Source of the DNA: Torpedo marmorata
Taxonomy: Eukaryota
DNA length: 64,000 nt
Assembly (NCBI GenBank): GCA_977017645.1
Contig: OZ360230.1
Location: 28,148,001 to 28,212,000 of the forward strand
Direction: 5' to 3'
Shown piece by piece: positions 41,808 through 42,001 of the stretch; position 1 is the first letter of the stretch; every line of letters begins with the position of its first letter. Both the position numbers and the translations under genes were made by a program. The notes under the pieces were generated by a model. The model was not told the DNA's origin, searched no databases, and was given only the letters and a program-made list of their open reading frames with translations.

Positions 41808-42001
41808 CTTTCTCTAGGAATTACTAGCTCATTCTCTCCCAGCTCCAGACTGACAGTAATCCACTCCAATGACTTCTGCCTTTTGTGTGTTTATAGAACA
41901 TGTCTCAACCATAATCTCAAAGCTACAATTACAATAGGATGTCATGACTTTAACCTTAACACCACTTCCTTTAATTAACCTTCAGGGTGCATGACAGCAG
42001 C
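41808..42001 (-). ncRNA. Candidate internal exon (194 nt) of Sox2-OT lncRNA
   Basis: Minus strand acceptor tgacaaaccaacatttttttgccacacag|G and donor GAAAG|gtaggc. Non-repetitive, no long ORF, about 9 kb upstream of Sox2 on the same strand. Confidence 0.65.

Follow-up and report, generated by a model that had tools for sequence, protein, structure and literature searches.

We found that the architecture in which Sox2 lies nested in the same-strand long non-coding RNA SOX2-OT likely extends to cartilaginous fishes, as judged from the genome sequence of the ray Torpedo marmorata together with annotated proteins of its relatives. The sequence-only reading of this DNA had claimed the same reach on the strength of a candidate exon upstream of Sox2. 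That general claim is probably right, on the evidence of a homologue of SOX2-OT exon 1 far upstream and of downstream exons inferred from relatives, but the flagged exon is not what supports it. For the flagged segment itself, we lean towards a pseudo-exon, in which ordinary splice signals came to be paired by chance within the repeat-poor regulatory DNA ahead of Sox2.

The window (the whole stretch of 64,000 nucleotides that was analyzed, from contig OZ360230.1) contains Sox2 as its only intact host gene, read from 32541 to 31609 as a single ORF and followed by a poly(A) signal, AATAAA, at 30735. The top solved-structure matches of this ORF are SOX2, and its protein is 99% identical to a shark and ray cluster and at most 85% identical to bony vertebrates. 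It has ray-type residues in common with Narcine, Leucoraja, and Amblyraja entries, and an exact look-up gave no identical entry. The CpG content around the gene is not depleted from ~12000 to 43000, with an observed/expected ratio of ~0.9 below ~43000 and of 0.1-0.5 above, and such a sharp edge is what an unmethylated valley at a developmental gene usually shows. Repeats dominate the window past 48000. At 35470-35180 on the minus strand, ~2.7-2.9 kb from the ATG, lies a putative Sox2 N2/SRR1 enhancer. A metagenome scan for vertebrate Sox2 contigs with long flanks returned 22 loci, and the best four (48-72% identity) span just 1.1-2.4 kb. The gene and its surroundings are as follows:

31609..32541, minus strand: Sox2 ORF, 310 aa, from the ORF list and from structure and protein matches.
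25461..45659, no strand: 20-kb stretch without local repeats around Sox2, from repeat comparison.

Rfam represents SOX2-OT by four models, RF01951-RF01954, for exons 1-4. RF01951 (SOX2OT_exon1) has a full-length match (model positions 1-230 of 230) beyond the window, on the contig and strand of Sox2 and 142 kb upstream of its ATG, that scores 94.4 bits where the cut-off is 65. This was the only one above the cut-off among the 20 genome matches listed, and a canonical donor, CAGAG|GTAAGC, stands 10 nt past its end:

contig 28322567-28322317, minus strand: SOX2OT exon 1 homologue with donor, from the RF01951 profile match.

The surroundings of this homologue are CpG-poor. The RF01951 consensus contains the mouse Sox2otb primer, as compared by eye, and Sox2otb starts ~88 kb upstream of Sox2 in mouse (PMC5762901); the longer distance of 142 kb is consistent with the repeat-rich interval found here. 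A full-length match with a donor likely marks a SOX2-OT locus in a cartilaginous fish. A chondrichthyan exon 1 would shift the origin of SOX2-OT to the base of jawed vertebrates, an expected step, and its value lies in the dating, since SOX2-OT is one of few deeply conserved lncRNAs. Variants of SOX2-OT are known in human, mouse, chicken, frog, and zebrafish (PMC7718063, PMC4469893), and its Rfam domains have been found in birds (PMC4378963). No paper on SOX2-OT in cartilaginous fishes appeared among the best-ranked literature matches, a coverage from which subscription journals are mostly absent.

The downstream part of the locus came to light through shortened Sox2 proteins of chondrichthyans, which form a cluster of 20 entries (15 listed), with two more Callorhinchus entries in the main cluster. 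The 17 entries that we examined come from at least 12 named species of shark, ray, and chimaera among those listed. All 17 diverge from the normal protein after YTQQ(S/G)T, the point at which the window reads CAG|GTATGG, and the resulting spliced forms have 233-295 aa and lack the normal C-terminus. Ten of the isoform tails map to the minus strand of the window (tblastn E<1e-3), six match the window only as short in-phase words at AG sites, and the remaining one, from isoform P0130, did not map in the window or the genome. From these tails we placed acceptors at 30099, 29960, 29240, 28432, and 24868 on the minus strand, giving the following features:

31848..31856, minus strand: donor CAG|GTATGG within the coding sequence of Sox2 (the exon ends at base 31854), from the annotated isoforms of relatives.
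29837..30099, minus strand: downstream exon with two acceptors (30099, 29960) and, at 29837, a possible but weak donor, from tails ANGHQK and AGIGE in phase.
29200..29240, minus strand: start of a further downstream exon, acceptor 29240, from the P0131 tail GIRNT in phase.
28330..28432, minus strand: downstream exon that carpet sharks also have, from the P0033 tail (19/20 residues, E 1e-15), acceptor inferred.
24500..24868, minus strand: likely terminal exon, acceptor 24868, ELGNSWQIEGK and then a stop.

Agreement with sharks in the exon at 28432 is limited to the last 20 residues, a pattern that hints at conserved DNA more than at a conserved peptide. In the exon at 24868, ELGNSWQIEGK and its stop are identical in rays and catsharks, and AATAAA follows at 24681 and 24523. 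Most isoform entries are XP_ predicted models, which are usually built from RNA-seq, and AMR06573.1 is a GenBank protein. The truncated SOX2 isoforms are already in public annotation. The downstream exons are documented only as joined to Sox2, and their junction to exon 1 is a prediction. All four bony-vertebrate Sox2 proteins that were aligned have a proline between the Thr and the Gly/Ala at the donor site, so the internal donor looks specific to cartilaginous fishes. No paper on spliced Sox2 isoforms was found among the best-ranked literature matches, with subscription journals mostly outside their coverage.

Both acceptors of the 29837..30099 exon are found 0.6-0.8 kb beyond the Sox2 AATAAA. 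Mouse Sox2ot exon 5, drawn at chr3:34,551,922-34,552,422 in the supplement of PMC5762901, presumably lies about the same distance past the end of mouse Sox2. The 29837..30099 exon is likely its counterpart by position; RF01954 (SOX2OT_exon4) did not match at the 30099/29960 exon, so the link to mouse exon 5 is positional only. Taken together, the ray locus resembles SOX2-OT with its forms Sox2otb and Sox2otc (RF01951-RF01954; PMC4469893, PMC5762901) in being a same-strand unit around a single-exon Sox2 with an exon 1 homologue far upstream, a probable exon shortly past the Sox2 poly(A) signal, and a repeat-poor domain around the gene. It differs in that Rfam exons 2, 3, and 4 have no detectable match and in that transcription through Sox2 is predicted. 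It also differs from bony vertebrates in having a donor in the Sox2 coding sequence that relatives splice to downstream exons. Separately, the pairs at 19851/19753-19698 and 6617-6483 (minus) are among the highest-scoring splice pairs of the window on the Sox2 strand, and it is possible that they are further Sox2-OT exons, 12 and 25 kb downstream.

The flagged segment lies 9.3 kb upstream of the Sox2 ATG on the same strand. The splice motifs that the sequence-only reading had described are all in place on the minus strand: on the acceptor side, TTGAC, a run of seven T, and GCCACACAG ending at the 42002/42001 boundary, where the branch A is at 42028 and precedes the segment by 27 nt; and on the donor side, AAG|GTAGGC at 41808/41807, leaving 194 nt in between. 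The same reading was right that the sequence is unique, as a DNA search of the 6.2-Gb assembly returned one match, the segment itself, and that it carries no coding signal, as each of the three sense frames is interrupted by stops. The longest open frame, of 50 aa, had no relative among proteins 27-88 aa long. The segment has no CpG, is AT-rich, and contains Sox-like ATTGT words. The features in question are:

41808..42001, minus strand: flagged segment, probably a pseudo-exon and possibly a Sox2-OT exon, from motifs, chance tests, and no SOX2OT Rfam match.
42002..42031, minus strand: acceptor-like region with TTGAC, T7, and GCCACACAG, 5.06 bits.
41802..41807, minus strand: donor-like GTAGGC after AAG, 5.12 bits.
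42579..42851, minus strand: competing candidate exon, 273 nt, donor AAG|GTGAGG, from splice-matrix scores.

These scores come from vertebrate splice matrices that were not fitted to the Torpedo marmorata genome. With them, the acceptor is equalled or beaten by 42 of 3996 minus-strand AG sites, and the donor is the second best on the minus strand within 32600-50000. Under strict rules copied from the description in the sequence-only reading, the segment was the sole pair on both strands of the window, with none in the 120 kb beyond; we rejected this uniqueness because the rules had been tailored after the pair had been seen. Scored without such tailoring, 24 acceptor-donor pairs are at least as good as the segment at both ends in 368 kb of single strand (both strands of the window and of 120 kb beyond), and 11 of these lie on the opposite strand to Sox2; the segment ranks 12th of 39 by summed score on the minus strand of the window. 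When the rule is relaxed but the branch-point test kept, at least one such "exon" turns up in 21 of 36 real 10-kb strand blocks and in 55% of 500 copies, simulated with a Markov model, of the zone 7-17 kb upstream. The splice signals of the segment are not above background.

Pseudo-exons in long vertebrate introns have consensus-like branch points, tracts, AG, and GT at exon-like spacing. The segment resembles them in the spacing of its signals and in that their frequency is matched on the opposite strand, and it is unlike a typical pseudo-exon in its place, where the mammalian locus has a genuine lncRNA exon, and this improves the odds of a real exon here. A chance origin is favored by the pair frequency and by the absence of any SOX2OT family match on the segment at E<=10. 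Counting against it are the strong donor, the position, the use of unfitted matrices, and the poor discrimination of the scores, evident from the fact that the segment acceptor outscores four of the five downstream acceptors inferred to be real (range 1.15-6.47). We hold the pseudo-exon to be somewhat the better wager, and the segment contributes little by itself.

The sequence-only reading had gone further and read the segment as the orthologue of the mammalian exon ~11-12 kb upstream of SOX2. RF01953 (SOX2OT_exon3, 276 positions) is the model of the exon it meant, since the RF01953 consensus contains both mouse Sox2otb/c qPCR primers (compared by eye) and, in PMC5762901, these primers fall in the exon that begins Sox2otc, ~11 kb upstream of Sox2. 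RF01953 gave no match at E<=10 on 41600-42200, though other families were reported down to 12 bits, and none at E<=10 on 39500-44500 or 41001-64000. More widely, the exon 2, exon 3, and exon 4 models did not match in the window from 24000 to 64000 or in the next 110 kb, and the exon 3 model had no match anywhere from Sox2 to 142 kb upstream; positions 1-24000 of the window were covered at the gathering cut-off. Genome-wide, RF01952, RF01953, and RF01954 scored 62, 27, and 47 candidates, none above the cut-off; two genome matches on other contigs, used to print the model consensus, are chance. Alignment to SOX2-OT exons, which the sequence-only reading had itself proposed as a check, was thus not found with the Rfam model.

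What would keep this orthology alive is a segment corresponding to mouse Sox2otc exon 1 / Sox2otb exon 4 whose place and splice sites were kept while the sequence drifted past recognition. The position is plausible for the mammalian exon (9.3 kb upstream against ~11 kb in mouse, on the same strand), and the 12.0 kb to the acceptor at 29960 compares with ~14.9 kb between the matching mouse exons. The segment also lies close to where the CpG-undepleted domain ends upstream, and exon 1 is present upstream as a potential splice partner. According to PMC5762901, the exon sequence of SOX2-OT is not highly conserved to Fugu and the surrounding, promoter-like regions, not the exons, are conserved from man to Fugu, which makes the RF01953 non-match weak evidence. 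On the other side stand the missing match itself, the length of 194 nt against 276 model positions, and the fact that in roughly half of cases chance alone would put a candidate in this zone. The neighboring pair at 42851-42579, 600 nt from the segment, is moreover the better one in length and in donor strength: its 273 nt are nearer the mammalian exon length, its donor is the strongest between 32600 and 50000, and its summed score is 10.9 against 10.2 for the segment, both pairs being predicted from scores. With these points weighed, the orthology claim is unsupported, and we regard it as unlikely.

In the same neighborhood, a patch at 40700-39500 (minus) is richer in GC and CpG and has a CCC|GTAAGT donor-like site near 40382. 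This patch could match a bivalent region described in mouse, 4 kb downstream of Sox2otc exon 1. No match was found for a ChIP primer from that mouse region.

The segment could also be a used exon with no mammalian homologue, a lineage-specific Sox2-OT cassette recruited from regulatory DNA. Its branch-point spacing and donor are good, and several alternative downstream acceptors are already used at this locus in relatives. SOX2-OT is described as having many exons, species-specific forms, and loose splicing (PMC7718063, PMC5762901), and the latter paper reports near-random splicing, so that a decent site pair may well be used. Among sequencing runs, no RNA run was listed for 39500-44500, and three runs presumed to be RNA contained 0.05-0.10 of its words, which counts neither way. 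Since the splice signals are at chance level and the exon is predicted from its letters, we consider a cassette exon improbable.

A further reading, compatible with a pseudo-exon, is that the segment belongs mainly to a conserved enhancer of Sox2, for instance N3, and that its splice-like motifs are incidental. The segment is single-copy, AT-rich, and CpG-free, has ATTGT words, and lies inside the 20-kb repeat-free domain. Like the segment, N3 is upstream of Sox2, and a 12-nt word of its published core (a 33-nt SOX-PAX6 oligo, taken from the supplement of PMC4330359) occurs 150 nt upstream of the segment. This 12-mer match, however, occurs in 7.8% of 500 shuffles, no match to the core with three or fewer mismatches was found, and the best local ungapped score (20/33) equals the null median, so the similarity to the 33-nt core is not significant. 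We therefore think an N3-like element rather unlikely as the main identity of the segment. The best match to the N3 core (24/33, with a 14-nt exact word) lies ~117 kb upstream of Sox2 on the minus strand and was set aside, as 4 of 300 shuffles do as well and the expected place is far away.

Returning to the pseudo-exon that we favor, the segment would lie within an intron of a SOX2-OT-type transcript whose first exon is 142 kb upstream. RNA polymerase II would start at exon 1 and then cross the Sox2 enhancers and the gene on the same strand, and the long transcript would be spliced to the acceptors at 30099, 29960, 29240, 28432, and 24868, mostly skipping the segment. In mouse, Sox2ot transcription reduces Sox2 in cis and weakens a promoter-enhancer loop (PMC5762901), and by analogy the passage of polymerase, more than the RNA sequence, may tune Sox2 in cis in the ray. 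The Sox2 mRNA may at times be spliced from its internal donor to these acceptors as well, which would cost the protein its last 81 residues.

The truncated SOX2 predicted in this way keeps its HMG box intact and loses, within those residues, part of the activation region and the VKSE motif, which we take to be a SUMO site. A wider model, tentative and in our view open to considerable doubt, is that SOX2-OT arose before cartilaginous and bony fishes diverged and that, in the former, Sox2 came to be spliced to the downstream exons of its host lncRNA through a shared internal donor, the truncated SOX2 acting as a dominant-negative form or a dosage switch and the segment being one upstream exon. 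The internal donor is a more surprising lead than the flagged exon. Studies of shark teeth, taste buds, and neural stem cells treat Sox2 as a single-exon gene, and a truncated SOX2 across sharks, rays, and chimaera would bear on that work.

Other elements of the window were recorded along the way. The only Rfam match at gathering level in the whole window is a 5S rRNA-like sequence at 17039-16916 (minus), with 46 bits against a cut-off of 38, probably either a pseudogene or the head of a 5S-derived SINE. At 25285-25447 there is a long, near-perfect inverted repeat for which a plant miRNA model scored far below its cut-off, probably a small non-autonomous transposon. Retrotransposon-like ORFs were recognized by eye at 49693-50748, 52735-53292, and 59522-60910, within 48000-64000, and the piece at 49400-50000 is present in at least 39 copies at 95-98% identity.
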